DNA from: a phage
Sequence record: PZ150741.1
Reading direction: 5' to 3' (one strand)
DNA: 48,243 nucleotides
Below are positions 26,828-42,201 of this stretch, in pieces. Position numbers and translations under genes: made by a program. Under the pieces are notes generated by a model, which saw nothing but the letters and a program-made list of their open reading frames with translations, was not told the DNA's origin and did not search any database. Within the stretch, counting starts at the first letter, position 1, and every line of letters begins with the position of its first letter.

Positions 26828-29194
26828 ATGTCAAGCGGATGCGGTGACGTTTTAAGCCTGGCGGATTTACAAACCGCCAAGAAGCACCAGATTTTTGAAG
26901 CTGAAGTTATCACAGGTAAATCTGGCGGAGTAGCCGGCGGTGCTGATATTGATTACGCGACAAACCAGGTTACAGGGCAGACCCAGAAGACGTTACCCGC
27001 CGTGTTGCGTGACGCGGGATTTTCTCCAGTGTCATGGGACTTTTCGACCGGCGGCACGCTAACTGTTAATGACCGCGACAAAGTTGTCTATGACCCGGTT
27101 AGCAAAACATGGTACTCGTACGCCGGCACTCTGCCTGTTACGGTTCCAGCTGGTTTTAACCCTGTGGGTAATGCGGATTGGAAACCGCAGACAGACCCCG
27201 ATTTGCGTCATGACATAAAAACTAACGGTCTTGACGGGGTTGTTATTACATCCGCAACGACGCAAGAAATATCCCTCCTTAATTTCACAAGTGGGAAAGT
27301 GCAGCTAACCGACAGAGACAATTGCTTGTTTGAAGTATTACCTCCTGGAACGGCAACGCCAGATGGGTATGCGTATTTGGGTATGCCTAACGGTTATGTT
27401 CTTGCGCTACTTGATTCAAATGGCTCTTACAATGTGCGCGGAGCTGGTGCTGTCGGAGATGGTTACAACGATGATGGTCTACCTATCGCAAGCCTTGTTA
27501 AAAGAGCGATGCAGACAAAAAAAGGGGATTTTGTATTTCCTGCAGTCGGCGCTGGGGAATCCTATGTCCTCAAGACCCCTGTAGATTTAATTTTTTCCAG
27601 TGCGACAATAGACCCGCCATCATTCACTTTTCGCGGGGTAGGTTCGGTTAATGGTCTCAGTATGCAGACTCGAATCGCCCACATTCGCGAAACGTACGGT
27701 ATAAAGCAGCGTAATATTGGAGCAACTTACCGTGACTTTCAGGCTATTGTATACTGCGGAGCACCTGCAAACATTATCAGCACCGGAGTTAACACCATTA
27801 CTCTGGACAGGAACCCATTCGGCGGAAATGGTGGCACCCCTGTAACATGGAATAGCACTGTTACTGCCGGAGATGGCACGCAGTATAGCTCTGGTTACGT
27901 CCAATTCGCGACAAACGCCGGTAGTTTTTATGCAAGCTCTTTCACGGATAATGGTGATGGAACATACACATTCGGCAATGTTAGACATGTAACATCTGCG
28001 TCAACCGACCTGACAACAAGCACACGAATTGTGCGTTTTTCATGCCGTGCACACTTTGAACCATCTGATGGCGGTAAATATCCAACCCCATCTGGTTATG
28101 CTGTTACCGCTGGTTTTATTTGGGCTGATACTCTTGAGAACATCCATATCGATCATGTTTGGTTTCTTCAACAGTTAAGATGTGTGGTACATGATTTGGG
28201 CGCTGGTGGCAGTGGTGATTCAGGGATAGGTAACATAGGTACTGTATCCAACGTAATCGTTGACGGGGCTTTCTCTTTTATGACCAACACCGATTTGTCG
28301 GCCTCGAGCGCACAGTCACTTAACGGCGGACATTTTTCCAACGTTCAGTTTTATTCTGTTAGGGCGCCATTTGTAGGGCGAAGAATACAGAATATTAACA
28401 TGGCTTCATTGCAATTATTTAGTTCAGATGGCCTGTTCTTTGCGCGTGATATTTCTCATGTGGCTATCCCAGGTGCAATATTGGGCTGGGACGGTACAAC
28501 AGGATTCTGTAAAAATATTGTTGTTTGTGAAAACATAGAAGATGCTAACTTCGGTTCATGTGTATTTGGGCGACACCAACACTCAACTCCAGTCATGACG
28601 TTTAACTCAGTTAACGGGCTATCTCTGGTCGGCGCAACACTCGGTACTGTATCTGAGGGTGCCACCGTCGGGGCGTGGATGTATGTAACAGGGAGCAACT
28701 ATAATATATCGGGGTTGAATATTTCAGTATCAATAGCGCACTTAACCGGTTCAGGAAGAAATGAATTGACGCTTTTAGCGGAAGATACGACAACAACTTC
28801 TGTTAACATGTTACGAAATAAATTTAGTTCTCGTGTTTATACAAATATCGCTAGAGACCTGAGAGATTACGACAGCACATCTGGTTTTTACGGTTATCTA
28901 TATTCAGGGGGCTCACCAAATGGTGGTTACAGCTTTGCTTTTAGTGTTGATGTATCTAGCTGGACACCATCTCTGAAAAGGAAGGCGATAAAACTTGGCG
29001 GGGCATTGACGTCTTCTGTGTCAAAAACTCTGCCAAGCGCCATAACTGAACCCGATAACGCTTCTGATTTTATAATAGATACCTCGTCTGTAGCACTTGG
29101 TTCTTACACGCTTACAGTATCAGGGTATACTTTAACCGCAGGAGTGCATGTGTTTAAGTGGGTCGGTTCATGGATACTGGTGTCCAGCAAATAA
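26828..29194 (+). CDS. tailspike / tail fiber protein with probable beta-helix receptor-binding domain
   Basis: 788-aa last late gene; N-terminal region resembles conserved siphovirus tailspike anchor domains; Gly/Ser/Thr/Asn-rich body. Confidence 0.55.
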   Translation: MSSGCGDVLSLADLQTAKKHQIFEAEVITGKSGGVAGGADIDYATNQVTGQTQKTLPAVLRDAGFSPVSWDFSTGGTLTVNDRDKVVYDPVSKTWYSYAGTLPVTVPAGFNPVGNADWKPQTDPDLRHDIKTNGLDGVVITSATTQEISLLNFTSGKVQLTDRDNCLFEVLPPGTATPDGYAYLGMPNGYVLALLDSNGSYNVRGAGAVGDGYNDDGLPIASLVKRAMQTKKGDFVFPAVGAGESYVLKTPVDLIFSSATIDPPSFTFRGVGSVNGLSMQTRIAHIRETYGIKQRNIGATYRDFQAIVYCGAPANIISTGVNTITLDRNPFGGNGGTPVTWNSTVTAGDGTQYSSGYVQFATNAGSFYASSFTDNGDGTYTFGNVRHVTSASTDLTTSTRIVRFSCRAHFEPSDGGKYPTPSGYAVTAGFIWADTLENIHIDHVWFLQQLRCVVHDLGAGGSGDSGIGNIGTVSNVIVDGAFSFMTNTDLSASSAQSLNGGHFSNVQFYSVRAPFVGRRIQNINMASLQLFSSDGLFFARDISHVAIPGAILGWDGTTGFCKNIVVCENIEDANFGSCVFGRHQHSTPVMTFNSVNGLSLVGATLGTVSEGATVGAWMYVTGSNYNISGLNISVSIAHLTGSGRNELTLLAEDTTTTSVNMLRNKFSSRVYTNIARDLRDYDSTSGFYGYLYSGGSPNGGYSFAFSVDVSSWTPSLKRKAIKLGGALTSSVSKTLPSAITEPDNASDFIIDTSSVALGSYTLTVSGYTLTAGVHVFKWVGSWILVSSK

Positions 29195-29195
29195 A

Positions 29196-29224
29196 ACTAA
29201 GGCCCCTTTCGGGGCCTTTTCTCT
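29196..29224. terminator. bidirectional terminator AAGGCCCC-TTTC-GGGGCCTT
   Basis: Third copy of the same hairpin; separates convergent late and replication blocks. Confidence 0.8.
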
Positions 29225-29360
29225 ACTCTTCTGTTAACTTCTCCAGTACAAACGCCAGTTGCGCATTAGCAGCATCTCTCTGTTGCCGTAGTCGTAGAAC
29301 CTCTTCCTCGAGTTCCTTGATACGTTTTTGCAATGCTGGAATCGGGGCTATGATGTTCAT
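29223..29360 (-). CDS. possible small coiled-coil protein (45 aa)
   Basis: ATG overlaps stop of Toprim gene (ATGA); ends at terminator; below track cutoff. Confidence 0.3.
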   Translation of the reverse strand: MNIIAPIPALQKRIKELEEEVLRLRQQRDAANAQLAFVLEKLTEE

Positions 29361-29872
29361 CTGGTAAATTTCCTCGCAAGATACGTTATTTCTTCTTTAC
29401 AAAGCTCATCAAGGTCGTTAGATACAAATCCTCTGGTGAATGTTTTGCTGAACTTTAATCCAGCTTTATCATTGTCCCCAGCGCACACCCAGTCATACGG
29501 CAAAAGTGACATTTGCTGCCGTAGGTCTGTTGGTATATTTGACCCAAGTGCGCTTACGGCATTGAACCCGCAATTCATCAAAGCAACAGCTTTAAATATG
29601 CTTTCGGTGACAAATACCACCCCGCTACTTGGCAGATACTCAAGTCCCCATAAACACGGCCTTGTTGTTCGGGTAAAGTACCGCGCGTCTTTAGGGTTTT
29701 TACAGTTCTTTTCCGCATGTGGCTTGTAATGCTGGTATCCTCGTAGCCTACCGTCAAAGCCCCACAAGTAGAATGTAGCGACGCCAGGGGCTAAGACTAC
29801 ACGTAAACGGTCTGCGTCAAAACCTCGTGACAGCAGATGCGCCTTAAGTAGAAACTCCTCACCGTCAGTCAT
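29357..29872 (-). CDS. Toprim-domain protein (primase/topoisomerase-like catalytic core)
   Basis: VFVTESIF Glu motif and CAGDNDKAG DxD motif at Toprim-typical spacing. Confidence 0.5.
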   Translation of the reverse strand: MTDGEEFLLKAHLLSRGFDADRLRVVLAPGVATFYLWGFDGRLRGYQHYKPHAEKNCKNPKDARYFTRTTRPCLWGLEYLPSSGVVFVTESIFKAVALMNCGFNAVSALGSNIPTDLRQQMSLLPYDWVCAGDNDKAGLKFSKTFTRGFVSNDLDELCKEEITYLARKFTR

Positions 29873-31293
29873 TTCTTACCTCGTCTCTTCATGTAATTAA
29901 GCAACTCTTCCTGTACCGATTTCTTCTCGTCTGTACGCGCGGCGACAACCTCGTCCAGCGTGTCTTTAGCCACGATGTGGTAGAGAAACACCGGGCGCTC
30001 GTGGCCCGCCTGTTTCTGGCGAACGGGGCCGATGCGCTCAACGACCTGCAAATAGTGCTCAAGGTTCCAGCCTTGCGAGATAAACGCCAGATGATGGCCG
30101 CCGTCCTGTAAATTCAAACCATGACCGGCTGACGCAGGGTGAACGCACAAAATCTCGATTTCACCACGGTTCCACGCTTCCATCTGCTTATTACCCTTAG
30201 CGCCTTTGGCAAACGCCTGCGCCTGTGGGAATCGCTTAAGGATGCGCTCAAGTTCGTGCTTGAACTGATAGGCCACCAGTAACGGTGCACCCTGTAGCTC
30301 CTCAACAATCGACTCCAGCGCATCCAGTTTCGTGTCGTGAACTTTCTCCCAGTCTTTGGTCGCTTCTCCGTCTGGCCCTGACACATACACGGCACCGGAC
30401 GCAATCTGCAGGCACTTCGACGTCTTCGCCGCAGCGTTAGCCGCTTCGACTTCCCCGCTCTCCAGTTCCGCGAATAACTTCTCCTCCATATCGATGTACG
30501 CCTGACGCGCTTTCTTCGGCAGGTCGATTTCAACCGGCACAATAATCGGCGCTTCGCAACCGAACCACTCTGCGGCGTCAATCGTAAGACTAATGTCCTT
30601 CATCTTCTGGTGAATTTCATTATCTGCGCCTGGGCGTGCATGATATTCACGCGCCATAGCTGACTTACCTTTCTGGACAGAGTTAAACCAGCGGTCGGTG
30701 AATGCCGTATATGAAGAACCGAGGCGCTCGCCTGCGTCAATAAACCAGTTCTGACCCCACAGGTCTTTGAGGCCGTTTGGTGATGGTGTGCCTGTCAGGT
30801 TAATGAACCGCTTAACCTTTCCGAACGCCACTTTGCTGAGCGCCTTAGCCCGCTTGCTACCCCCTGAACGGCTACGGAATGATTTTAGCTTCGTACTCTC
30901 GTCGGCGACGATAACCGTAAAAGGCCAGTCGTCTTTGCCGTAGTAGTCAATCAGCCACTCGATAACTTCGTAGTTAGTGCACACCACGTTAGCGTCTGAC
31001 TCCAGCGCCGCAATACGGCGTTTCTCCGAACCCGTTGCATCGACGACACGCAGGCACGGGAAACCCCACTTAGTTTGTTCTGCAGGCCACGTACCGGACG
31101 CAACACGTAACGGGGCGAGGATTAACACGCGGTCCTCTTCCGTAAGCTGACCGTTGCGGAACAGGCGGTTTAATGTCCACAGTACGCTGCCAGTCTTCCC
31201 GGCACCCATGCTCGCCCATATGTTGCAGCGATGGTGTTGCAACATGAACGAAGTCATGAGCTTCTGATATTCGCGCCTTTGAAACTTACCCAT
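29869..31293 (-). CDS. SNF2/DEAD-like superfamily 2 helicase
   Basis: Walker A MGAGKTGS, DExx box VADEST, C-terminal HPASAGHGLNLQ helicase motif VI-like. Confidence 0.8.
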   Translation of the reverse strand: MGKFQRREYQKLMTSFMLQHHRCNIWASMGAGKTGSVLWTLNRLFRNGQLTEEDRVLILAPLRVASGTWPAEQTKWGFPCLRVVDATGSEKRRIAALESDANVVCTNYEVIEWLIDYYGKDDWPFTVIVADESTKLKSFRSRSGGSKRAKALSKVAFGKVKRFINLTGTPSPNGLKDLWGQNWFIDAGERLGSSYTAFTDRWFNSVQKGKSAMAREYHARPGADNEIHQKMKDISLTIDAAEWFGCEAPIIVPVEIDLPKKARQAYIDMEEKLFAELESGEVEAANAAAKTSKCLQIASGAVYVSGPDGEATKDWEKVHDTKLDALESIVEELQGAPLLVAYQFKHELERILKRFPQAQAFAKGAKGNKQMEAWNRGEIEILCVHPASAGHGLNLQDGGHHLAFISQGWNLEHYLQVVERIGPVRQKQAGHERPVFLYHIVAKDTLDEVVAARTDEKKSVQEELLNYMKRRGKK

Positions 31294-32203
31294 TTACCAC
31301 CCCCATGAACGCCTTTATAAATTCAGCGGCTACTTGCGGGACGATGGCATTGCCGTAACCGCGCAATCGTCCCACTCTGGCGGGTATCCCATTAGCCAGC
31401 GGGAATGTGCCGGGTTCAACTGGCCGGAATTTCCCATCCCGGCAGCCGAGCCAGTCAGCATCTGACCAGAAGCCGTGATACGAATTGGTTGCGTTATCGC
31501 CGCCGCTTGTGCCACGTCTTGAGGTCCACCCTTCCTCTGAATCTCTGATAGCGCCCCCTCTAGTGTTCTCACGTTCTTTTCCCCGTCCGCACTGCGAGGA
31601 GTAGGCCAATTCGCTTTCCACACTTCCCGCCCCAACAGGCTGTTGGTAGGCACATTCAGGCATTCCTTCCCGTCTTTGTGGTCGCGCGTTGTTGGCGTCG
31701 GCCAATTCGTGCGCACCAAAGAAGAGTCGTTCTCTTTTGTGCGGAGCGCCGACGCTACAAGCTGGGAGTACGGCAAACCCGACGGCGTAGTCTTCTCCTT
31801 CCAGGTGAGCTTGTAAATCGCACATCCACGATTTTGCAATTGCTGGTGCAACCTGTTCCCCAAAGAGGACTGGAGGGCGGCACTCGCTGATGAGGTCGAG
31901 GAAAACTGGCGCGAGGTGTCTCGGGTCGAACTGCCCGAGTTGTTTTCCCGCCGCGCTAAACGGTTGGCAAGGCGGGCTTCCCGTCCAGAGAGGCGTATCT
32001 TCCGAAACTCCCGCAAGTCTGAGCGCGAGAGGCCAGCCGCCGATACCAGCGAAAAAATGACACTGGGTGAATCCGTCAAGGTCTTCTGGTCTAATTTCGG
32101 TAATGCTTCTTTCATCTACAACTCCAAAAGGTATATGACCCTGTTTTATTAGTTCGCGCAGCCACGCGGCTGCGCCTTTATCCCATTCGTTGTAATAGTT
32201 CAT
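31286..32203 (-). CDS. DNA (cytosine-5)-methyltransferase, compact
   Basis: Motif I FFAGIGGW, motif IV PPCQPFSAAG, ENV-like FGEQV, motif X YGNAIVPQVA. Confidence 0.75.
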   Translation of the reverse strand: MNYYNEWDKGAAAWLRELIKQGHIPFGVVDERSITEIRPEDLDGFTQCHFFAGIGGWPLALRLAGVSEDTPLWTGSPPCQPFSAAGKQLGQFDPRHLAPVFLDLISECRPPVLFGEQVAPAIAKSWMCDLQAHLEGEDYAVGFAVLPACSVGAPHKRERLFFGAHELADANNARPQRREGMPECAYQQPVGAGSVESELAYSSQCGRGKERENTRGGAIRDSEEGWTSRRGTSGGDNATNSYHGFWSDADWLGCRDGKFRPVEPGTFPLANGIPARVGRLRGYGNAIVPQVAAEFIKAFMGVVNG

Positions 32204-32391
32204 TTCGCCACCAGAACTAACTCTTTACGCCCGAATGCCGTAACGTTGCCCGTTACATCTTCGATAACCAGTTTACCGTTCGACTCGACGTACACCGTAT
32301 CAACGGCAACCGGCTGGCGGGTTTTAACGTTGAAAATCATGTCGCCTGGTACGATGTCACGTGCCGGTTTGCGGTCATATTCGTGTTTCAT
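32200..32391 (-). CDS. hypothetical small protein (63 aa)
   Basis: Track ORF, overlapping stop/start with methyltransferase gene. Confidence 0.45.
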   Translation of the reverse strand: MKHEYDRKPARDIVPGDMIFNVKTRQPVAVDTVYVESNGKLVIEDVTGNVTAFGRKELVLVAK

Positions 32392-32405
32392 TTCTCAATT
32401 CCTTA

Positions 32406-32699
32406 TCAGTATATTAATTCGTTTATTTTCTTATCCAGAGATTCTTTTGAGTAAAAGAAACCCATGTGTCTTCCTTTAAATACGAGCCTGTACACATTTT
32501 CCCCGTCTTCGGTAATAGAAAGGAAAACCTTACAACTAGTTCGGAACTCTCTTACTTTGTCACCAAACGCCAATTGCTCCCATTTTACTAAAGGAAATTC
32601 TTTTAACATATTAGTGTACAAGTCATTCGCGGTAGCCACTAAACCCGCATCTAACAGTACGGCGATTCTCTGTGCGTAATCTAAAAGGACCTTATTCAT
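32406..32699 (-). CDS. hypothetical protein (97 aa)
   Basis: Track ORF immediately downstream of near-consensus promoter. Confidence 0.5.
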   Translation of the reverse strand: MNKVLLDYAQRIAVLLDAGLVATANDLYTNMLKEFPLVKWEQLAFGDKVREFRTSCKVFLSITEDGENVYRLVFKGRHMGFFYSKESLDKKINELIY

Positions 32700-32729
32700 T
32701 TCTCAATTCCTTATATTGTTGGTGTACGG

Positions 32730-33014
32730 TTAACTATAATAGTTAGCTATTATGTCGTCAACCTGTTTAAACGAACCAACGACAAAAACATTCGCGCCAC
32801 GTTTACGCATCCGCTCATGTTCACGTAACTGGTGCGGGTCTGGCTTCGTGTTTTCATCTTTCTTAACCTCGACAAACCAGACGATGCCGTCGGGGAGGAT
32901 TACCAGCAGGTCGGGAGCGCCGGAGCGCCCCTCGTAGGAGAGTTTGCGAACGAGGCCCCCCAGGGCCTCGAATCGCTCTTTTGCGTATTTCTGTATTTTG
33001 CCTTCCGGGGTCAT
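32730..33014 (-). CDS. VRR-NUC domain nuclease (PD-(D/E)XK)
   Basis: Track ORF 32730-33029; motif PDLLVILPDG...FVEVKK; start probably ATG 33014. Confidence 0.6.
   Translation of the reverse strand: MTPEGKIQKYAKERFEALGGLVRKLSYEGRSGAPDLLVILPDGIVWFVEVKKDENTKPDPHQLREHERMRKRGANVFVVGSFKQVDDIIANYYS
32733..32761 (-). promoter_or_regulatory. sigma70-like promoter (TTGACG-17 bp-TATAGT)
   Basis: Reverse complement TTGACGACATAATAGCTAACTATTATAGT; member of leftward early promoter family. Confidence 0.65.
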
Positions 33015-33163
33015 GAGCGCAGAACCCAAGTAAGGAAAGCCCCTCCTAGAACGGCAACACCGACAAACTTAAAGAACAGGCCATAACAGAACATCGCAGC
33101 TATTCCAGCGCCGAGTAACAGTGCGAGCATGGCTACTATCGTCCAAAATACAAACATCGTCAT
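33011..33163 (-). CDS. possible 50-aa membrane peptide
   Basis: ATG at 33163; hydrophobic throughout; stop overlaps VRR-NUC start; below track cutoff. Confidence 0.25.
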   Translation of the reverse strand: MTMFVFWTIVAMLALLLGAGIAAMFCYGLFFKFVGVAVLGGAFLTWVLRS

Positions 33164-33245
33164 AATACACACCCCTCACGTTTTGTATGCTCAACCCCAC
33201 AGCGCGGGCAGATTCGGCAGTCTTCTTCATAAAACCAGTAAATTT

Positions 33246-33377
33246 TCATTCCAGCACCCACAGATAAATTGCGATGAACATGCCCAATATGGCAACCATC
33301 ATGCCGTATTGACCCTCGTGACAGTAGACACCGGCGGCGAATCCTGCCAGTACCGCGATAATCAGTTTACTTGGCAT
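33246..33377 (-). CDS. possible 43-aa membrane peptide
   Basis: ATG at 33377 overlaps 3' end of polymerase gene; hydrophobic. Confidence 0.2.
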   Translation of the reverse strand: MPSKLIIAVLAGFAAGVYCHEGQYGMMVAILGMFIAIYLWVLE

Positions 33378-35670
33378 AACGCTTCATCTCCGCACCTTCC
33401 GCTACAAGAGGGAACCCTTCGGCCCATTCCGGTAATTCGCACATCAACCGCCCAAGCTCTGCAACATTGTATTCCGGTGTATCTGGTGTCTCGCAGATAA
33501 TTTCGTCGTGTACGTGAAGCACAATCGGATAGCCGTTAGCTTCTACATTCAGCAGCGCATTAGCCAGCAAATCACGGCACAGCGCCTGAGTGCAGTTTTC
33601 CACCAGTTTACCGGAGTAGGTGTACTGGAAGCCCCACTGACGGGTTAACTGGTTTTCTCCCTGGTACTTGATACGCACGTTAGTAGACACCTTTCCGTCT
33701 TCGTCTGTCTCTTTCGACACGCTTAACCCGACTCCGGGGTATGACATAACACGACCCGACGGCAACGTCATGCGCAGCCACCAGCCAGCGACTTTGTTGC
33801 CGTTGGTGTCTGTCTCCACGTTGCGCGAAAACTTAACGCCGCGTGGCCCTGCGGTGAACTCTTTACCTGGATTGCGGATAGCTGCCATAGCCGCATCTTC
33901 AATATCTCGCCAGAACGCTACTGTTTCAGGGTGGGACTCACGCCACATGCGCTTGATAGCGTCGCAGGTACGCCACACTTTCTTATCAAGAATATACGAT
34001 GGCCGGTCATCCTTTTCACCCGGACGCGGTGGTCGCTTTGCCTCCTGAATACGCGCCCACTCATACCCACGTGCTGTAGCAGCCCAGATGTGGTCGGGGA
34101 AAGTCCCATCCATTGTTTTTGCCATATCAACAAGGTTTAAGCCGAGGTTTTTAGCAAACTGAACGAAAGCGCCAACGCCGCCTGCGTAGCCGAGGCCAAG
34201 TTCGCAGGCTTTACCAATCTGGCGCAGGTCACTACGGCTTTCGAGAATGTAATCAGGGTCCATGCCGAACATCTTACCCGCGGTTACGCAGTAAATATCC
34301 AATCCCGCACGGAACGTATCGAGCGCGGTTTCTTCTCCCGCCAGCCATGCCAAACCGCGACCTTCAACGTTAGAGTAATCAGCTACGACAAACTTATGCC
34401 CGGCTTCCGGTATGATGCAGCTACGCACCGTCGATGCCGTTAGCTTGGCTACATCGAAACGGCGGTGTGCTCGGCCTTTAAACAACAGGTCGATTCCGTA
34501 GGACAACGGGTGTGTTACTCTCCACCAGTCCTTCTCCGACATCCAGTCATAACGTACTTTCTTCTTTTTATTCTTAGGGTCGTCGTGATAATACCCGCGC
34601 GCCAGGTTCTGCGGCTGAAAGCCTTTACCCGCAAACCGTAACGTACGCTTAGCCCCGCCATACTGGATACAACCGCGACGGCGGTCGTCCGACGAACGGC
34701 CCAACAGAAGCGGGTTATATTTCGTTGACGCGGTGGACGCGGCCCCGAGGCGCATTTCGATAATCATACGAGCGTCGTCCGGTAAATCATCATCCGCAAG
34801 CAGGTCATTCAGAGTCGACTTCTGCGCATTGTGGATGCGGTGCGCTGGCGCAAGTTCACGTAGAATCGGCAGAAAGTCTTTACCAGTAAGCGAGCCGCCG
34901 TACTTACGCTGGGCTTCTTCCTGTAACTGCGCCTTGTGTTTCTCTACCGCTTCAATCGCTGCTTCTGCAAGCGCGACGTCAACCTTAAACCCGCGGTCGT
35001 TAATTAACTGGTCCAGCTCCAGTACACGGTCTTCGAACTCAGAGTTACCCCAACGCGGCAGCTTATGGAAGACTTCACGCATTGCGGTGATGTCGCTCAC
35101 AGCGTACTTGATGAATAGTGCCCACTCGTCAGGGTGCGTTTCGGCGGTGTAGCGTCTGATTTTGTAGTTCTTCGGTGTCGGTTTAGAGAAACGCTTAATC
35201 AGTGCCTTTCCGCGTTTATCTTTCGCGTTGTCTGCAGACACGCCCAGCACTTCACACAACGCATCGAGTGACCCAGGCAGCGCGTGACGAAACGCCCAAA
35301 TCATCGTATCAATGGTGTTGCTTACCGGAATATCAAAACCCCAGCAGTGCTTCATGATTAACCTATCGAACATTGAGCCGTTGTGCCACACCATCTTAAC
35401 GCGGCTGTTTGGCTTAACCAGGCGGCGCAAGGCGCGGTGTAAATCCCCCGGCATGTCGCTGCCGTCGGTGCAATCCCATATCTGTACCGGCTCGTCGTCA
35501 AAAGCATAAGTACAGATGAGCACTTCGGTGGTTGGGTGCTCCGCGTAAGCGTATGAGCCGACTTTCTTCAAATCGGCTTCGGAGAATGTTTCAAAGTCCA
35601 GGTATAAGTAGCTCATTTCTTTTTCCTTAAATCCAGTGCCTTTGTTTCGCTTAATCTTATTTTCATACAA
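33367..35670 (-). CDS. family A DNA polymerase with 3'-5' exonuclease domain
   Basis: Exo I YLDFET; motif A ADYSNVEGR; motif B RQIGKACELGLGYAGG; motif C HVHDE; alternative start ATG 35616. Confidence 0.9.
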   Translation of the reverse strand: MYENKIKRNKGTGFKEKEMSYLYLDFETFSEADLKKVGSYAYAEHPTTEVLICTYAFDDEPVQIWDCTDGSDMPGDLHRALRRLVKPNSRVKMVWHNGSMFDRLIMKHCWGFDIPVSNTIDTMIWAFRHALPGSLDALCEVLGVSADNAKDKRGKALIKRFSKPTPKNYKIRRYTAETHPDEWALFIKYAVSDITAMREVFHKLPRWGNSEFEDRVLELDQLINDRGFKVDVALAEAAIEAVEKHKAQLQEEAQRKYGGSLTGKDFLPILRELAPAHRIHNAQKSTLNDLLADDDLPDDARMIIEMRLGAASTASTKYNPLLLGRSSDDRRRGCIQYGGAKRTLRFAGKGFQPQNLARGYYHDDPKNKKKKVRYDWMSEKDWWRVTHPLSYGIDLLFKGRAHRRFDVAKLTASTVRSCIIPEAGHKFVVADYSNVEGRGLAWLAGEETALDTFRAGLDIYCVTAGKMFGMDPDYILESRSDLRQIGKACELGLGYAGGVGAFVQFAKNLGLNLVDMAKTMDGTFPDHIWAATARGYEWARIQEAKRPPRPGEKDDRPSYILDKKVWRTCDAIKRMWRESHPETVAFWRDIEDAAMAAIRNPGKEFTAGPRGVKFSRNVETDTNGNKVAGWWLRMTLPSGRVMSYPGVGLSVSKETDEDGKVSTNVRIKYQGENQLTRQWGFQYTYSGKLVENCTQALCRDLLANALLNVEANGYPIVLHVHDEIICETPDTPEYNVAELGRLMCELPEWAEGFPLVAEGAEMKRYAK

Positions 35671-35783
35671 TCACGGCAAATCCACACATGCCGGTATCCT
35701 GCCCGGTACTTATCCGCGTACCACGGAAGCGGTTTCATATAGCGATAAACGTGCTTACAGAAAAACATTATTTTCGACCCTTA

Positions 35784-35809
35784 GTAAAAAGGCCCAATGA
35801 AGGGCCTTA
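35784..35809 (-). terminator. attenuator-type hairpin between SSB-like and polymerase genes
   Basis: On minus strand AAGGCCC-TTCATT-GGGCCTT followed by TTTTTA. Confidence 0.55.
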
Positions 35810-35827
35810 GTTAAATTGATTCAGATA

Positions 35828-36457
35828 TTAACGGCGGCGACGTTCGCGGCGCGGTGCTTCATCTTCTTCGTCGTCTTCCAGGTCGTCAGTGCTCGCCACT
35901 ACACTGGAGCCTCCGAAGCGTTTACCTTCACCCATATACTTGATGCCGAGGATGGTAGCGCACAGGTTTTTCCAATCTTTGTGCCACCATAACTCTACAG
36001 ATACGTTTGCGACACATCCGCTATATACCTGCTCACCTTCTATTTCCTTCCCATCGATGTTGAAATCAGGCTCGGTTTGTTTTTCGCCTTTAGCCGATGT
36101 CATAATCACCGGTTGACGGTTGTTAGTAGCGCGGAAATACAGACCTTCTTCAAAATCATCAATCGGATTATCTCGCATCGCCAGGTCACGGACACAGCAT
36201 TTATCTGCATGGTGGTCTACGCCGTAGTTGGCCTTCATCCATTTCTCGGCAGCAGCTGCCCCGATTGCCTCCGTTACAACTTCCATCGCGGTATCGTAAA
36301 GCGCATCGATTTGAGGGTGGTCAGGCTGCATAAGAACCGTAACCTGATATTTACCCTTAATCAGTTTACCAGTTTTCTTGTCCTCAGAGTCGGCAGCACG
36401 TTCGAATACGTTAACCCAGGCAGTGTTTACTTTACGCAGATTCAGTTTAATACCCAT
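35828..36457 (-). CDS. ssDNA-binding-like protein (DUF2815-like) with acidic C-terminal tail
   Basis: 209 aa; C-terminus DDLEDDEEDE; co-located with DUF2800-like nuclease and polymerase. Confidence 0.5.
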   Translation of the reverse strand: MGIKLNLRKVNTAWVNVFERAADSEDKKTGKLIKGKYQVTVLMQPDHPQIDALYDTAMEVVTEAIGAAAAEKWMKANYGVDHHADKCCVRDLAMRDNPIDDFEEGLYFRATNNRQPVIMTSAKGEKQTEPDFNIDGKEIEGEQVYSGCVANVSVELWWHKDWKNLCATILGIKYMGEGKRFGGSSVVASTDDLEDDEEDEAPRRERRRR

Positions 36458-36523
36458 CTTGATTTCTCGCTTTTCAGTTTATATTTCAAAGTTTACTCCG
36501 GGAACTGCCCGGCCAGTGATTTA

Positions 36524-36552
36524 ACTATAATAGCTTACTATTCAGGTGTCAA
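36524..36552 (-). promoter_or_regulatory. sigma70 consensus promoter (TTGACA-17 bp-TATAGT)
   Basis: Reverse complement TTGACACCTGAATAGTAAGCTATTATAGT; palindrome CCGGGCAGTTCCCGG in the leader. Confidence 0.7.
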
Positions 36553-36556
36553 CACT

Positions 36557-37831
36557 TTATTCCAAATCTTCTTCACTAACCCGATTCCATTCAGGACGCT
36601 TGTCGTCTGCCGTCGCGACACATGGTGAACCGGGCTTACGCGTAATGAAGTCTTTTAGTTCTTCTTCCGGTATTACTTTAACGGCCTCGGTAGGCGTCAT
36701 GAGCACGTCTTTAGTCAGCTTGTAACCATATTTCTCGTATACCGCCTCGGCATCCTTCCACGCACGATTACCCGGGCGACCTTCAACCAGCTTGTACCCA
36801 GGAACTTTCTTACCGGAATGCAACGCGGTGGCCATCGCTTTCTCGACCTTGTCGATGTGCTGGCGCAACAACGGCAGCTTCTCATACTCGACTACGAGTT
36901 GCTCCGGCGTCAGTTCCAGCGCAAAGTCATCTTCAAGTTCTTCCGCCAGTACAGAATTAACGGTTCTTGTACGCGCGGCGCACTGTTCTGAGAACCGACA
37001 CCACTGACAACCATCGACAGACGGCTTGAAGTCCGTCGCTTTCAGGTTCTTTTTACCACGGAAATAAGCATCAAGCGCTAACAGCGCGCGTTTCTGTGCG
37101 AACTTAGCAAACAGTTCCAGACCTTCGACCGAGATGTCCCATTCCGACGCACCGCCCGCGTACGGCTGGAAGATGACCAGACGAACAACCGTGATGTTAT
37201 AACGTCTCTTGAGTCGGCGATAAACACCGAGAGCGTAAAGCATAAGCTGCTTGTTTTCTTTCGCTTCGACACGATGTCGTCCTGTTTTCAGGTCGCCAAT
37301 AATTAGCATGTGCTCGTCAGTGTTAGCCAGTTCCTGAACGGCAACAAGGTCAGCGGTCCCGAAGGTCTCTAAATCGTCTTCCTCACCTTCTTCACCATCA
37401 GCAGGTACTTTGTAGCCCGGATGCAACACCTCAGTAAGATTGACACGCATCTCGAGTTTGGCGTAAGTCGCTACATCGATAATCGGTTTGCAGTAGCCGG
37501 TGTACTTGCGCACCTGCTCAATCATGTCAGCCGTAATCAGTACCGCACCTTTCATCGGGCTGATTAGCGCCTTAATCTGGCCTTTACCCTCGTCCAGCAC
37601 GTAAGCACCAACTTCGCGCTCTAACGGCAACGCAGTGCCTTTGATGTACTGGTTAAGGTGCATCTCAGCTATGGTGTGCATTGCCGTGCCTAATACAGCG
37701 GCTTTACCGGACGTGTTAGGAATATCTTTTTCACAGGCCAGTGATGCGGCGCAGCTTAGCCACTTTTTAGCCCCCGATGGTGACAGTAAGGCGTGCACAT
37801 CATTATTTCCGCCGCGTTCTTTTAGAATCAT
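36557..37831 (-). CDS. Cas4-like PD-(D/E)XK exonuclease (DUF2800-like)
   Basis: N-terminal HALLSPSGAKKWLSC motif; C-terminal Cys cluster CQWCRFSEQC. Confidence 0.6.
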   Translation of the reverse strand: MILKERGGNNDVHALLSPSGAKKWLSCAASLACEKDIPNTSGKAAVLGTAMHTIAEMHLNQYIKGTALPLEREVGAYVLDEGKGQIKALISPMKGAVLITADMIEQVRKYTGYCKPIIDVATYAKLEMRVNLTEVLHPGYKVPADGEEGEEDDLETFGTADLVAVQELANTDEHMLIIGDLKTGRHRVEAKENKQLMLYALGVYRRLKRRYNITVVRLVIFQPYAGGASEWDISVEGLELFAKFAQKRALLALDAYFRGKKNLKATDFKPSVDGCQWCRFSEQCAARTRTVNSVLAEELEDDFALELTPEQLVVEYEKLPLLRQHIDKVEKAMATALHSGKKVPGYKLVEGRPGNRAWKDAEAVYEKYGYKLTKDVLMTPTEAVKVIPEEELKDFITRKPGSPCVATADDKRPEWNRVSEEDLE

Positions 37832-37977
37832 TCCGTAATCTCCACAATACGCGCATTAGTGAAACTGCGTTCGAAGCCGAATGTATAGAAGACATGCCGC
37901 GCTTCCTCAAGATGGGCGTAACGGCTATGTTCCTGGTCTTTACCGTCTATTTCTACGACTATCGCGTATCTTGTCAT
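37828..37977 (-). CDS. possible small protein (49 aa)
   Basis: ATGA-coupled at both ends to neighbouring genes; below track cutoff. Confidence 0.3.
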   Translation of the reverse strand: MTRYAIVVEIDGKDQEHSRYAHLEEARHVFYTFGFERSFTNARIVEITE

Positions 37978-38246
37978 ACCCTGTTCTCCCACTGGTCAAT
38001 TAAATGTCTGGTCTGGTGCTGGCAATGCATAGCCCACCCATACATCGACTCGAAGACATAAAAGTCGGGTTTGGTGAAAGTCGTGCGCTTAATCTGCGAC
38101 ACGTGGCGGCCTATATCTTTAGGCCGTGGTACTTTACCTAAGTACGCCATCTCTTCCATCTGGTGCGTGCCGGACGGCGCACGTAACAGCCATAGCGCCT
38201 CTGTGTTATCCCGCCTGTCTACGGCGCGGTAGAGTTGGTAAATCAT
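37974..38246 (-). CDS. hypothetical protein (90 aa)
   Basis: Track ORF. Confidence 0.45.
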   Translation of the reverse strand: MIYQLYRAVDRRDNTEALWLLRAPSGTHQMEEMAYLGKVPRPKDIGRHVSQIKRTTFTKPDFYVFESMYGWAMHCQHQTRHLIDQWENRV

Positions 38247-38578
38247 TTATCCACCTCATGCGTTCTCAAGAAGACAATCATAGCGGCGCGTAGAGGGTTT
38301 TTGCCGATAACGCATTCGTCTCCAACGTAAATCATACTGGTGGCGTCTCCGGTAATGCCGTCAATAACCGCATTATCCGGTAAAGCAATCCATTCTGAAT
38401 CGGTAGCTACAATCGAGATGTTGTTGCCGGTGATAACATGCCATGCGTCTTCCACGCGGTTGCAATAATCAACATCACCAGAAGCTAATTCCATCTGATG
38501 CCCACGAGAAACATCACCGTATAGCGCGCGGCTAACTCGTGCGTTAATCTCTATGTCTGTTAAATTTTCATATTTCAT
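38243..38578 (-). CDS. hypothetical protein (111 aa), DUF2591/NinX-like (tentative)
   Basis: Track ORF; weak recollected resemblance only. Confidence 0.4.
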   Translation of the reverse strand: MKYENLTDIEINARVSRALYGDVSRGHQMELASGDVDYCNRVEDAWHVITGNNISIVATDSEWIALPDNAVIDGITGDATSMIYVGDECVIGKNPLRAAMIVFLRTHEVDK

Positions 38579-38589
38579 ATTTCCGACCC

Positions 38590-38614
38590 TCAGTTAAAGC
38601 GGCCCGAAGGCCGC
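38590..38614 (-). terminator. hairpin GCGGCC-TTCG-GGCCGC plus T-rich tail (minus strand)
   Basis: Between the acidic protein gene and downstream operon genes. Confidence 0.5.
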
Positions 38615-38621
38615 GAGATAA

Positions 38622-39083
38622 TTATTCTTCTTCGAAATACTTGTTCTTGATTGCCGTCAGGCGTTCCAGGTATTCAGCCAGGTCTTCATCTTTAATCGCA
38701 GCAATCTTCATCTTCTTACCGGTGAACTCTTCCAGCAGCTCGTCAGAATCATCACACGCGGCATCGCTCGGACCTTCATTAATCGCATCGTCGATAGCCT
38801 GAATCTGGTCGCGCAGAGACTGGTAATCTACTTCTTCTTTCTCTTCTTCCGGCTCTGGTGTAGGTTCCTCTACTTTAGCTTTACGCGGCTTGCGTTTTGG
38901 CTTCTCTTCTTCTGCTGGTTTAGTGTCAACTATGTCTTCACCTTCGGCCGGGATTTCTTTCGTTGCAACAGTAGGCTCGATTGTTGCAGTTTCCGCAACG
39001 ACAACCTGTTTTGCACTGTTCGCGGCAATCAGTTCATGTGCAACTACGAAACGTTCCAGTAACACCAAGAATTTCTCTAACAT
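38622..39083 (-). CDS. highly acidic Glu/Asp-rich protein, first gene of a leftward early operon
   Basis: 153 aa with roughly 45 Asp+Glu versus about 20 Lys+Arg; immediately downstream of consensus promoter. Confidence 0.55.
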   Translation of the reverse strand: MLEKFLVLLERFVVAHELIAANSAKQVVVAETATIEPTVATKEIPAEGEDIVDTKPAEEEKPKRKPRKAKVEEPTPEPEEEKEEVDYQSLRDQIQAIDDAINEGPSDAACDDSDELLEEFTGKKMKIAAIKDEDLAEYLERLTAIKNKYFEEE

Positions 39084-39114
39084 TTGTTTCTCTCCTCTCG
39101 TTTGGTATGGGCTA

Positions 39115-39143
39115 ACTATAATAGCGAACTATTCACATGTCAA
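39115..39143 (-). promoter_or_regulatory. sigma70 consensus promoter (TTGACA-17 bp-TATAGT)
   Basis: Reverse complement TTGACATGTGAATAGTTCGCTATTATAGT. Confidence 0.7.
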
Positions 39144-39165
39144 TGGGCTTTTCTAAAATAATTAA

Positions 39166-39176
39166 TATGGTACTAT
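39166..39176 (+). promoter_or_regulatory. possible extended -10 promoter (TGGTACTAT) for HTH gene
   Basis: TG-n-TACTAT about 30 nt upstream of ATG 39208; no clear -35. Confidence 0.3.
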
Positions 39177-39207
39177 TCACATATCAACTGACTAAGGAGT
39201 AACTGAC

Positions 39208-39423
39208 ATGCAACCATCTGAACTAGGCATCCGTGTAGAACAACGCCGCAAAGAACTCGGCATCTCCCAGCGCCGTCTGGCGGTCCTGGCCGGGGTTTCC
39301 CAGGGCGCAATTAACCAACTTGCACTTGGAGTAACTCAGGACGTCCGCCCGGCGACGCTGTTTAAACTGGCGGAAGTTCTGCAAGTAGACGCTAAGTGGC
39401 TGGCGTTCGGTGAAGGGGCTTAA
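39208..39423 (+). CDS. XRE/Cro-type HTH transcriptional regulator
   Basis: LGISQRRLAVLAGVSQGAINQL HTH signature; AAGGAG SD. Confidence 0.7.
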   Translation: MQPSELGIRVEQRRKELGISQRRLAVLAGVSQGAINQLALGVTQDVRPATLFKLAEVLQVDAKWLAFGEGA

Positions 39424-39440
39424 CGCCCCTTTCTTTTTAC

Positions 39441-41681
39441 CTATTCCAAATCTTCCTCTGTAACTATCAGCATTTCATTCGGTTCGTATATTGTCTTCGG
39501 TCTTAATCTGTCACCCATCTTTTCCGGTATCCGGTATGTACCGGGAATAACCTCGCCGTTAACATCACACCCTAGCATCAACTCACCGTCCTTCAGCATC
39601 TTCTCAAGATGGTGGTTGGTTATGGCGTGGTCGCCGGAGTTCGCTACTATCTGCCGTTGGGTAAAACCTCGTCCGGTGTCGTCGGACTGTTGCAGGTCTT
39701 CCAGCGCGGCGAGTATTGATTCCTTACGCCCTTCATCCTTCCCACGTTTTACGGCATTCTTTACGTTTTCCTTACCTTCCTTTGTCAGCCCTTCTTCGCG
39801 CTCTTTCTCCTCGTCAGTTTTGAACGGCTCGAAACCCCACGGCATCAACACAAGCGCCTTGTGCGGCTCAGGCAGGTCCAGGTTTACGATTGTGCCGTAC
39901 TCCTCGGTGCTACCCAGGAACTCAACCGCACGGTACTCTTTTGGCGGCGGGGCTTCACGGAACTGTACGGACTCCAGAACCATACCGACAGTTTTCTGTT
40001 GAGGCCCGTGCTTAAATTTCGAGTGGTATACGTTTATCTGACGGTCGGTTGCACGTTCGATTGTCAGTTCCACGTCGACGCCCGCATACAGCGCCCCACT
40101 GCCACGGGCTTTCTTTCCGCCTTTCGGCGTATGGTGAACAACGCCCACCGCGGCTTTAGTCGCATCGCGTACTTCTTTCAGGATGGCGATAACTTTACCC
40201 ATGCCGATTGCCGTCGATGAACTGTTCTCGTCGAACTTATCAATTGTCAGGGCCAGCGTCTGGTTAAGGGTGTCGAACGCGACCATTCCGATAGGTTCAT
40301 CCCCGGCAGTTTCGCGCATGAGCTTAATCAGGCTTTTCAGTTTGCCGACTTCGCCCATATCGATGACATGTACATAATCTTTACCTTCCGCGCCATATTT
40401 AGCCGCGAGTGCATCGATACGTGTACGTGTGGCTGCACCACCCTCACCATCGATATAGAAATGGTGACAACGCTGGGTATCCGCCCCCGCAAACCGGTAA
40501 CCAGCGGCGCTGAGATACATCATACCCAGCGTATAGAACGATTTGTACGTGCCAGATTCCCCGACGATATCCCAGATACAATCCGACGGCATGTACCCTT
40601 CGACGACGAAATCAGCCTTTACCGGTTCCGGTAATTCGTCCTCCTCTGAGTCCTCGTCGTCTTCCAGGTCGTCCAGGCTGCATGAGACGGATTCACGCGC
40701 ACCCCAACCGATGGCCTCTGCCACTTCACTGAATGGCAGCCCGGTCGCATCGCACGCGTACTTCCACACCTCTTTCGGCGACATGCCTTCGGTTGCCGTA
40801 ATGTCGGTGTCGTGAATCATGGTTACGTTCGGAGCTTCATATCCCTCGCGCGGGAAGCACAGCAGGAAGTCGTCCGGGCGCGGTGTCGGGTCGCTGTAGT
40901 TTTCTGCGTGTTCTGGCGTAGCTGGCATTTTCAGTCCGCGGGGTGTCATGACACCGCCGTACTCGAACGCCAGTGCTTCGAACGCATCCGTAAACGCGGT
41001 GCGCAGTTCTTCCGGTATCTGGTAATCCGATGCGCTGCTAACGTCAACGGCGGGGATGCCTTCCAGTAACTCGTCCGGGTCAATCAGGTCGTTGCGGCGC
41101 GACCAGATAACCTGAGAGCCAACCGGCGGCAGGTACATCGGCTGCGACAGAGTAAAACCGCTGCGGTCGGCGCCCATGCCTTTGAAGAAGTGTTCCAGCA
41201 GCCCATGACGAACACGGGTGATGTCGCCACCCTCAACCGGACGGCCCAGCGGCATGACGACGCGAAAGCGCGGGGACTCATCGGTATGGGATGCCGTGGT
41301 GTAGAGGCACATAGCCCGGCGGCTGCGCTTAACCAGGCGCACCGCTTCCTGGTACTCTTCCGGTGTTGCGCTGTCGAAGTCCAGATACGCCAGCGACGAT
41401 TTGCTTACAGAAGCGTCGCAGCGGTATAAAAAGCCTTTGCGCGCTTGCTTAAAGTCACCAGTTTCCGGGTCTTTTACGGTGCTGTGTGTAGAGTCACACG
41501 CGGCGGTGATATAGCCGGGCGCAGTCTTAGGGTTAACCCCATCGCGAACGGCATCGAGCGGCTGAATTAACTCTTTCAGGTCGTCCAGTGTTGCCGTGTG
41601 TGTGGTTCTGACGTTTATATCCTTTTTCTCTGCTCTCGCGTTGCGACGTGACCACGAGTAGGATAAAATTGCATCGGACAT
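39441..41681 (-). CDS. primase-helicase (N-terminal primase-like region plus RecA/DnaB-like NTPase)
   Basis: Walker A GESGTYKS and downstream acidic Walker B-like VAFD; 746 aa, large N-terminal domain; placement in replication block. Confidence 0.55.
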   Translation of the reverse strand: MSDAILSYSWSRRNARAEKKDINVRTTHTATLDDLKELIQPLDAVRDGVNPKTAPGYITAACDSTHSTVKDPETGDFKQARKGFLYRCDASVSKSSLAYLDFDSATPEEYQEAVRLVKRSRRAMCLYTTASHTDESPRFRVVMPLGRPVEGGDITRVRHGLLEHFFKGMGADRSGFTLSQPMYLPPVGSQVIWSRRNDLIDPDELLEGIPAVDVSSASDYQIPEELRTAFTDAFEALAFEYGGVMTPRGLKMPATPEHAENYSDPTPRPDDFLLCFPREGYEAPNVTMIHDTDITATEGMSPKEVWKYACDATGLPFSEVAEAIGWGARESVSCSLDDLEDDEDSEEDELPEPVKADFVVEGYMPSDCIWDIVGESGTYKSFYTLGMMYLSAAGYRFAGADTQRCHHFYIDGEGGAATRTRIDALAAKYGAEGKDYVHVIDMGEVGKLKSLIKLMRETAGDEPIGMVAFDTLNQTLALTIDKFDENSSSTAIGMGKVIAILKEVRDATKAAVGVVHHTPKGGKKARGSGALYAGVDVELTIERATDRQINVYHSKFKHGPQQKTVGMVLESVQFREAPPPKEYRAVEFLGSTEEYGTIVNLDLPEPHKALVLMPWGFEPFKTDEEKEREEGLTKEGKENVKNAVKRGKDEGRKESILAALEDLQQSDDTGRGFTQRQIVANSGDHAITNHHLEKMLKDGELMLGCDVNGEVIPGTYRIPEKMGDRLRPKTIYEPNEMLIVTEEDLE

Positions 41682-41739
41682 GTTGTATTTCCTTCAGCAA
41701 GTAATTTGGCCTCGGCGTTCACCGCGTCGGGGCTTTCTT

Positions 41740-41973
41740 TTATTCCAGGTCTTCTAAAGTAGCGGTCATTCCGCGAACTTCGGCAACGGCGCTATATTTC
41801 CCGCCAACGTTTTTCACGACACCGGATTTAACCAGAACACGTAACGACCCTTCAATAATGGCGGAACTATAGTACTTAAAATAACTACGGCGCAAGTCGA
41901 TAACACTGCACGACCCTTTTTTACGTGTTAACGAAACGACTGCTGTGAATACTCGTGACTGGAACTCGGTCAT
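41740..41973 (-). CDS. hypothetical protein (77 aa)
   Basis: Track ORF; ATGA-coupled to upstream HTH gene. Confidence 0.45.
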   Translation of the reverse strand: MTEFQSRVFTAVVSLTRKKGSCSVIDLRRSYFKYYSSAIIEGSLRVLVKSGVVKNVGGKYSAVAEVRGMTATLEDLE

Positions 41974-42140
41974 TTCACGTTCTCCTTAATCCACGCTTCC
42001 ACTTTCTCCGGGTCGAACGTACCTGGCTGCCGGCGGCCCATAATGCGAATACAACAATCCGGGAACTTTCCACTCTTTAACCAGTTATTCAGCGTGCGAC
42101 GGGTAACCCCGATACGCTCAGCTACCTCATTCTGCGTCAT
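41970..42140 (-). CDS. AlpA/excisionase-like HTH DNA-binding protein (56 aa)
   Basis: MTQNEVAERIGVTRRTLNNWLKSGKFP resembles AlpA-family HTH; first gene after leftward promoter; below track cutoff. Confidence 0.55.
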   Translation of the reverse strand: MTQNEVAERIGVTRRTLNNWLKSGKFPDCCIRIMGRRQPGTFDPEKVEAWIKENVK

Positions 42141-42172
42141 TCTCAAACCCTCATCATCAGTTAACGAAACAA

Positions 42173-42201
42173 AGTATACATTGCGAATAATGGGAAATCA
42201 A
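42173..42201 (-). promoter_or_regulatory. sigma70-like promoter (TTGATT-17 bp-TATACT) for leftward operon
   Basis: Reverse complement gives TTGATT, 17-bp spacer, TATACT about 30 nt upstream of ATG 42140. Confidence 0.5.

Follow-up and report, generated by a model that had tools for sequence, protein, structure and literature searches.

Which protein primes DNA synthesis in a phage that encodes both a large primase-helicase and a small, standalone Toprim protein? The question is raised by the phage sequence PZ150741.1 (48,243 nucleotides, referred to here as the window). Its minus strand carries the genes of a 746-amino acid (aa) primase-helicase, a DUF2800 nuclease, a single-stranded DNA (ssDNA)-binding protein (SSB) of the former DUF2815 family, a family A DNA polymerase, a VRR-NUC nuclease, an SNF2-family ATPase and a 171-aa Toprim protein (Table 1). 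All of these genes lie on the minus strand at the coordinates given in the original prediction, and the domain identities it gave agree with Pfam and PHROG searches. The prediction also regarded a Toprim protein encoded apart from the primase-helicase as unusual, and took it as a possible true catalytic subunit of the primase. Our analysis supports a different reading, in which we have good confidence. The region is a conserved early replication/recombination operon of the Kagunavirus type, most probably encoding a minimal replisome in the style of phage T7, with the 746-aa protein as the primase and the Toprim protein as an accessory factor.

The two ends of the window match each other (bases 1-4670 and 43577-48243, 99.94% identical), so the sequence represents a whole circularly permuted genome of ~43.6 kb, read past its end. 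A DNA-level search with bases 29300-42200 revealed matches in 496 phage records. The best of them are E. coli Kagunavirus genomes of the Guernseyvirinae (88-91% nucleotide identity, 80-88% of the query covered), and on this similarity the phage is classified as a Kagunavirus-like siphophage. No tRNA genes are present in it. Gene content and order agree with the annotation of phage phiWAO78-1, in which the Toprim gene appears as "toprim domain-containing protein / putative DNA primase". SETP3, the type species of Jerseyvirus, is annotated with DUF2800, DUF2815, PolA, SNF2-helicase and primase/helicase genes in the order seen in the window. Judged by such annotations, found in hundreds of Kagunavirus and Jerseyvirus records, the module is already known. 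Its core corresponds to the duf2800-gp2.5-polA replication module of phages (PMC8093625), which has an Enc34-type SSB (Pfam PF10991). Here, too, these three genes follow one another in that order; a classical ssb gene is lacking, and the VRR-NUC and SNF2 genes are nearby. No essential difference was found, and the window is a member of this group, with near-identical operons in Kagunavirus and Jerseyvirus.

The helicase core of the 746-aa protein was recognized by Pfam well above the threshold (AAA_25, 63.8 bits, cut-off 27), and PHROG families labelled "DNA primase" and "DNA helicase" match aa 87-208. Homologs were collected with the full-length protein as a query, which was needed because the N-terminal region alone yielded 3 matches only. 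Among close relatives, aa 1-340 (40660-41681, minus strand) exist in two versions that share ~22% identity and precede a near-identical helicase part, an arrangement that reflects mosaic exchange. Shared by the two versions are D101-x-D103, which follows a hydrophobic strand, as well as T-T-A-S131-H132, R140, P144 and D172. When two distant homologs were added, D101, R140, P144, D172 and P185 still showed no variation, and motif I had either D or E as its second acidic residue.

These residues fit the definitions of the three motifs of archaeo-eukaryotic primases (AEPs), i.e. I, hhhDhD/E; II, sxH; and III, hD/E (PMC5862659). In the 746-aa protein they are LAYLDFD (D101, D103), ASH (S131, H132) and AD (D172), respectively, as a pattern match and not a statistical test. 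Since they are kept despite strong divergence, the motifs appear to be in use. In the distant homologs the same domain precedes a VapE-like helicase (an Oscillospirales phage; VapE-like_dom, E 1.3e-77) or a RepA-type helicase (Rhodoferax phage P26218; RSF1010 RepA, 1g8y, at 7.5e-18). AEP families of the PrimPol-PV1 group combine a primase domain, PriCT or a zinc-binding domain (ZnBD), a RepA/DnaB/VirE helicase and a winged-helix domain (PMC4889955, PMC5862659). The N-terminal domain of the 746-aa protein is thus likely to be an AEP-type primase domain. The same general plan, with an AEP domain, a PriCT/Zn-binding region, a RepA-type helicase and a C-terminal region, is found in gp43 of corynephage BFK20 (PMC4889955, PMC5862659). 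However, the 746-aa protein shows no detectable similarity to the Prim-Pol domain of gp43 (hhalign of the N-terminal-domain profile against the BFK20 gp43 Prim-Pol region, E 0.69) and has no Pfam Prim-Pol match.

Other searches with parts of this protein were equally unproductive. Pfam at E<=10 gave no match within aa 1-340 or aa 528-746, a six-sequence profile of the N-terminal domain found no match among PDB sequences, and the structure model of the domain is poor. The lack of a significant profile or fold match to AEPs, together with the poor model, favours an alternative in which the domain serves for origin binding or loading, host DnaG makes the primers, and the Toprim protein is an optional, phage-encoded substitute for it. 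The presence of the Toprim gene in a subset of phages only would fit such an optional replacement of a host function. We nevertheless consider this alternative unlikely. The DxD...sxH...hD pattern is strictly kept across versions that are ~22% identical, the domain precedes two unrelated classes of helicase, as is typical of primase domains, and PHROG primase families match it.

Several observations weigh against priming by the 746-aa protein and have to be set beside this evidence. The version present in the window has Gln in place of the motif IV Arg of the other version, and it does not have the Cys/His zinc-like motif (CPNEH...CQH...C) found there, so its primase function is possibly impaired. 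Host DnaG could in principle serve phages without the Toprim gene, and absence of the gene is therefore no strict proof of AEP priming. Finally, the literature searched contains no biochemical data on any protein of this phage group.

The profile searches placed DUF2800 and DUF2815 above their Pfam cut-offs, while Toprim_2 fell barely below (21.9 bits, cut-off 22.1). The Toprim assignment nevertheless stands, because the 171-aa protein matches phrog_849 ("DNA primase") with E 1.6e-48. Its structure model has a pLDDT of 93.8, and the whole-protein fold matches primases, with 149-161 residues aligned compared with 88 for bare Toprim nucleases. Fourteen full-length relatives are all 148-174 aa long. 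E90, G-D133-x-D135, D153-L-D155-E-L and an N-terminal block are invariant among them, and the acidic residues align to the Toprim motifs of the T5 primase (T5.121). The protein is thus a DnaG-type catalytic core, intact-looking by sequence and model. No zinc-binding domain or Cys/His motif was found in its 171 aa, which are filled by the catalytic core, and there is no helicase-binding domain or C-terminal extension. In this respect it differs from DnaG, from the RNA-polymerase domain of T7 gp4, which come with zinc-binding and helicase-interaction domains, and from T5.121, the canonical primase of T5, which consists of Zn_ribbon_DnaG, DNAG_N and Toprim domains. In T7 the zinc domain is required for template-directed primer synthesis.

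The complete core with its invariant metal-binding residues is an argument for the reading of the original prediction, in which the Toprim protein is the catalytic primase and the 746-aa protein a helicase, perhaps recognizing the template in trans as part of a split primase. Further support comes from the position of the gene, which is translationally coupled to the replication operon: its ATG overlaps the stop codon of the SNF2 gene (ATGA) and is preceded by GAGG. Split DnaG-type primases with standalone zinc ribbons are reported from jumbo phages (PMC7824862) and provide a precedent for a Toprim protein acting as a primase subunit. It may be added that the other version of the helicase N-terminus has the zinc-like motif described above, and that the AEP assignment of the 746-aa protein lacks statistical proof.

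A split primase of this kind would call for a zinc ribbon acting in trans, and none that is convincing was found in the module. Two candidates were considered and rejected: a 51-aa open reading frame (ORF) whose product has the pattern C-x-H...C-x-x-C but which only 3 of 9 close relatives share, and the ORF at 33160-33261 (minus strand), in which Cys residues are substituted in some relatives. The latter encodes a 29-aa peptide, MKIYWFYEEDCRICPRCGVEHTKREGCVL, that is kept in Kagunavirus.

The distribution of the genes also argues against the Toprim protein as the primase. In DNA-level searches the Toprim gene was found in 68 phage records, compared with 419 for the N-terminal part of the helicase protein and 702 for the adjoining upstream SNF2 gene (453 of these at >=80% identity). 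Most relatives with the same helicase, polymerase, SSB and nuclease thus do without it. No Toprim homolog could be detected in SETP3, where the best tblastn (E 0.36) and profile (E 0.028) hits are both noise. Yet SETP3 retains orthologs of every other module gene, with identities of 65% (helicase), 87% (DUF2800), 63% (SSB), 80% (polymerase), 85% (VRR-NUC) and 97% (SNF2). As the same replisome is present there, phages of this type replicate without a Toprim protein. Compensation by the helicase was also considered, in which case the Toprim gene would go with one of the two N-terminal versions, and was rejected: the gene occurs with both versions (JSSK01 has the other one), and SETP3 has the window-like version and no Toprim gene.

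Together with the AEP-type motifs, which are conserved in both strongly diverged N-terminal versions, and with T5-like phages that have a Toprim homolog beside a canonical primase, these data leave the Toprim protein a very improbable catalytic primase. Comparative genomics thus contradicts the only new claim of the original prediction. As far as the distribution can tell, the Toprim gene is accessory, sporadic and dispensable for replication in this phage group, and its product is not the main primase. It may serve in auxiliary priming or in an RNA-directed activity.

The standalone form is not unusual either; it is the rule. An exhaustive profile search revealed 628 cluster representatives of the Toprim family at E<=1e-3 (364 at E<=1e-10), nearly all of which are 165-190 aa long and stand alone. 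The few that are longer carry heterogeneous fusion partners, namely GNAT, CCA-adding enzyme/HD, Mom, HAD and cytidylyltransferase domains. Pfam scans of 10 fused proteins from the 150 top-ranking family members showed neither a helicase nor a zinc finger, which also speaks against a role as the replicative primase. A homolog in a 261-kb jumbo-phage contig (L013, 10010-10508) consists of two overlapping ORFs of 83 and 135 aa, each in a different frame. Erwinia jumbo phages also have a Toprim homolog, likewise split in two overlapping ORFs and recovered by tblastn in two pieces.

A relative outside this group is T5.076, a hypothetical protein of phage T5, which is zinc-less, of the same size and 48.8% identical over 94% of the length. 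Unlike the gene of the window, located at the end of a replication operon, T5.076 (L017, 4986-5504) belongs to the tRNA cluster of T5, where it is transcribed from a promoter of its own directly upstream of the genes for tRNA-Ser and tRNA-Ile. The DnaB-like helicase, canonical primase T5.121 and polymerase of T5 are encoded ~30 kb away. In a distinct 109-kb phage the homolog (L012, 9995-10516) is found inside a cluster of 25 tRNA genes. In Vibrio phages (L018, 3896-4432) it overlaps the 3' end of the gene for a CCA-adding tRNA nucleotidyltransferase, and the metagenomic protein P0112 is a natural fusion of a Toprim homolog and a CCA-adding enzyme.

These contexts, along with the sporadic, accessory-like distribution, suggest that the Toprim protein might be no replication factor at all. 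It would instead be a mobile accessory, acquired in the same way as the methyltransferase gene next to it, either a small nucleotidyltransferase or nuclease acting on RNA (e.g. in tRNA maintenance) or a counter-defence protein. We regard this as possible but not probable. Several features of the window phage stand against it: the fold as a whole is that of a primase and not of a bare Toprim nuclease, the phage has no tRNA genes, and the gene is embedded in and coupled to a replication operon, beside SNF2. Moreover, the fusion partners other than the CCA-adding enzyme are heterogeneous and may be gene-calling artefacts. For the wider family of zinc-less, T5.076-like mini-DnaG proteins, we tentatively suggest an accessory class of enzymes, directed at RNA or tRNA or involved in small-RNA counter-defence, and not in priming at the fork. 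A literature search on Guernseyvirinae toprim, T5.076 and Mte8 found nothing relevant.

Phages of this group that carry the Toprim gene may encode two primase types. In a global survey, only one double-stranded DNA virus was found to encode an AEP-type primase-helicase together with a DnaG-type core (PMC4889955). Provided that the AEP assignment holds, the Guernseyvirinae with a Toprim gene would add to this exception. They were most likely overlooked because the Toprim protein is small and scores just under the Pfam cut-offs.

Table 1. Predicted genes and ORFs of the replication region of the window, with the matches on which each assignment is based.
Feature	Coordinates	Strand	Evidence and remarks
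171-aa minimal DnaG-type primase core (N-subdomain + Toprim)	29357..29872	-	accessory gene
SNF2-family ATPase/helicase, 474 aa	29869..31293	-	PF00176 E 3.2e-13; phrog_62 "DNA helicase" E 1.5e-168
C5-cytosine DNA methyltransferase, frame 0, 305 aa	31286..32203	-	PF00145 E 1.2e-16; phrog_363 E 3.4e-86; accessory
Nested +1-frame ORF, 261 aa	31330..32115	-	phrog_1008 "DNA methyltransferase" E 1.1e-54; W.TP repeats, motif IX-like LMGYPPEW
Two small ORFs, 97 and 63 aa	32200..32699	-	63-aa ORF: phrog_4879 E 1.6e-46
VRR-NUC PD-(D/E)XK nuclease	32730..33029	-	phrog_93 E 2.4e-34; phrog_5702 "Holliday junction resolvase" E 6.8e-21
Family A DNA polymerase, predicted 3'-5' exonuclease domain	33367..35616	-	PF00476 E 3.9e-15; phrog_17 "DNA polymerase" E 5e-138
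51-aa ORF, C-x-H...C-x-x-C	35613..35768	-	variable accessory; in 3/9 close relatives
Gp2.5/Enc34-type ssDNA-binding and annealing protein (former DUF2815)	35828..36457	-	PF10991 E 1.1e-11; phrog_112 E 1.6e-32
DUF2800 Cas4-like PD-(D/E)XK exonuclease	36557..37831	-	PF10926 E 2.3e-64; PDDEXK_1 E 6.8e-9; phrog_69 "exonuclease" E 1e-117
Three small conserved ORFs, 111, 90 and 54 aa	37828..38578	-	phrog_444 and phrog_4965 for the 111-aa and 90-aa ORFs
153-aa acidic protein	38622..39083	-	phrog_3127 E 2.3e-62; SETP3 counterpart 73% identical
71-aa Cro/CI-type helix-turn-helix regulator	39208..39423	+	PHROG transcriptional repressor/regulator, best 4.3e-11; opposite strand within the module
746-aa primase-helicase	39441..41681	-	AEP-like domain ~aa 87-210; RepA/DnaB-type core aa 352-522 (Pfam); ends ...EEDLE
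77-aa conserved protein (ORF77)	41740..41973	-	phrog_5169 E 4e-39; "replication protein" in phiWAO78-1; ends ...TLEDLE
58-aa helix-turn-helix DNA-binding protein	41970..42146	-	PHROG excisionase/MerR-like/DNA-binding helix-turn-helix, best 3.5e-10; first gene of the minus-strand operon

For the remaining enzymes of the replisome, the sequence features listed in the original prediction are all present: polymerase motifs A, B, C and Exo I, the N-terminal motif and Cys cluster of the Cas4-like nuclease, and the acidic tail of the SSB. For the polymerase, DNA_pol_A scored 56.1 bits (cut-off 34.3), and motifs A (DYSNVE, 413), B (RQIGKACELGLGYAGG) and C (HDE, 703) were located, A and C of which align to Taq polymerase. 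The exonuclease domain (PF01612, DNA_pol_A_exo1) scored slightly under its cut-off (22.9 and 23.6 bits, respectively), and its Exo I (D7-F-E9, DFE), Exo II (NGSMFD, 79) and Exo III (YAVSD, 171) patterns are present. The start of the protein is most likely the ATG at 35616 (MSYLYLDFE..., 749 aa) and not the TTG at 35670 of the mechanically called ORF. In SETP3 (24737-27202 and 28400-31498) the polymerase coding sequence is longer (1032 aa), an HNH endonuclease gene is nearby, and the SNF2 helicase is annotated as intein-containing. The same module has been invaded by mobile insertions in relatives.

The SSB was recognized by the Enc34_ssDNA-bd profile (45.1 bits, cut-off 26), and phrog_112 is labelled [quoted passage not shown]. 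Its acidic tail, DDLEDDEEDE, is followed by a basic RRERRRR end. The DUF2800 protein matches PF10926 over the full length of the profile (positions 1-368 of 368; 218.4 bits, cut-off 21). It contains the N-terminal motif HALLSPSGAKKWLSC (residues 13-27), GDLK (179) and QLMLY (195), and a Cys cluster (C275-x2-C278-x5-C284) which, together with C27, is kept in SETP3 and in a 53%-identical ortholog. By these features, a PD-(D/E)XK motif and four conserved Cys residues (one N-terminal, three C-terminal), it is classified as Cas4-like, and an iron-sulphur (Fe-S) cluster and nuclease activity are predicted. The similarity to Cas4/AddB-type nucleases, which bind a 4Fe-4S cluster, comprises the single N-terminal Cys with C-x2-C-x5-C, the PD-(D/E)XK motif and the QxxxY motif. 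In contrast to Cas4, DUF2800 has no link to CRISPR and belongs to phage replication and recombination.

The VRR-NUC protein scored below the Pfam threshold (VRR_NUC PF08774, 20.0 bits, cut-off 23.8), but its sequence contains the PD...EVK motif; the ORF can be extended to 33029. It is likely to be a structure-specific nuclease or a Holliday-junction resolvase. Both the polymerase and this protein match parts of phrog_93 ("endonuclease", 613 positions): profile positions 279-365 match polymerase aa 485-579 (33880-34165, minus strand), and positions 350-442 match the VRR-NUC protein. The polymerase fragment and VRR-NUC may therefore form a single polypeptide, or be called as one, in some phages. 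In the SNF2 protein SNF2-rel_dom scored 49.9 bits (cut-off 24.9), while Helicase_C was under its threshold (20.2 and 23.5 bits, respectively). For most module proteins NCBIfam gave no family-level match, and the Toprim, 746-aa, DUF2800 and SSB sequences found nothing useful in direct searches of PDB.

From these identities we infer the following division of labour. The RepA/DnaB-type helicase of the 746-aa protein, presumably hexameric, would unwind DNA, and its AEP-like N-terminal domain would make the primers, which the family A polymerase would extend with 3'-5' proofreading. The Gp2.5/Enc34-type protein would coat ssDNA and anneal complementary strands. End resection by DUF2800, a putative Fe-S nuclease, combined with annealing by the SSB, could lead to recombination-dependent replication and the formation of concatemers. 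Before packaging, branched DNA may be processed by VRR-NUC and the SNF2 ATPase. The variable end of the operon encodes two accessory proteins, the C5-methyltransferase and the 171-aa Toprim protein. Their genes flank SNF2 and are both absent from SETP3 (no methyltransferase homolog was detected there), and in this sense they behave as accessory.

The replisome of T7 consists of the gp4 primase-helicase, the gp5 PolA polymerase, the gp2.5 SSB and the gp6 exonuclease, and its replication proteins carry acidic C-terminal tails. The window follows the same logic: its helicase, of the SF4 type, is fused to a probable primase, its polymerase belongs to family A, its SSB is an annealing protein of the Gp2.5 type, and an exonuclease serves recombination. 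Acidic C-terminal tails on replication proteins are common to both. It differs in that the primase domain fused to the helicase looks AEP-type and not DnaG-type, that the helicase is of the RepA/AAA_25 type, that the exonuclease is a Cas4-like PD-(D/E)XK enzyme with a predicted Fe-S cluster and not a FEN-type gp6, and that there is no sign of thioredoxin binding. The original prediction of a self-sufficient replisome with a recombination-dependent branch thus holds for the T7-like set and its recombination enzymes. "Self-sufficient", however, is too strong, since Pfam and PHROG scans of the module genes revealed neither a ligase nor a clamp, nor a nuclease dedicated to primer removal. The phage presumably depends on Pol I and ligase of its host.

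Of the 367 ORFs of at least 40 aa in the window, exactly three end in DLE, and all three belong to the module: the DUF2800 nuclease (...SEEDLE), the helicase (...TEEDLE) and ORF77 (...TLEDLE). Their SETP3 orthologs end in ...EDDLE, ...EGDLE and ...PEDLE, respectively. DLE also occurs within the SSB tail (DDLEDDEEDE). These ends resemble the acidic tails of T7 gp4 and gp2.5, which bind the polymerase, and the DLE tail may be a C-terminal docking peptide shared by proteins of the replisome.

The C5-methyltransferase gene has a long ORF nested in its +1 frame. Six phages of very different groups were compared in this respect: the window phage, K1G, Bordetella PHB09, Burkholderia BcepC6B, Rhodobacter RcAquaphina and Edwardsiella eiAU-183. 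In all of them frame 0 is fully open and contains motifs I, IV, VI, VIII and X. In each, an open stretch of 230-355 codons with W.TP repeats occupies the +1 frame, and the +2 frame contains 12-20 stops. The motif IX-like LMGYP in the +1 frame is restricted to the window phage, K1G and RcAquaphina. Protein-level conservation between distant pairs covers three segments: the frame-0 N-terminus (E ~1e-57 to 1e-62), the +1 frame beyond about residue 100 (E 1e-24 to 1e-52), and the frame-0 C-terminus. The middle of frame 0 is mostly low-complexity. Judged by coordinates, both frames appear to be conserved where the segments overlap, which fits nested overlapping genes better than a frameshift fusion. 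Perhaps the nested genes encode a two-subunit methyltransferase. Both ORFs were annotated by the depositors of K1G, and no literature explaining the arrangement was found.

Among the smaller genes of the region, the product of the first gene of the operon is labelled a "helix-turn-helix domain-containing protein" in phiWAO78-1, and the regulator encoded on the opposite strand is labelled DicA/Cro-like. The 97-aa ORF (within 32200..32699) had no family match in Pfam or PHROG.

As a replication module the region is ordinary, a standard gene block of a well-sequenced family of E. coli and Salmonella phages. What the analysis usefully corrects is the role of the small Toprim protein, which should not be taken for the replicative primase. 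Two modest leads remain. One is the nested +1 ORF of the methyltransferase gene, which may be of more interest than the replication module itself. The other is the zinc-less mini-DnaG family, a large and uncharacterised family of DnaG cores to which the Toprim protein belongs together with T5.076 of a classic model phage.

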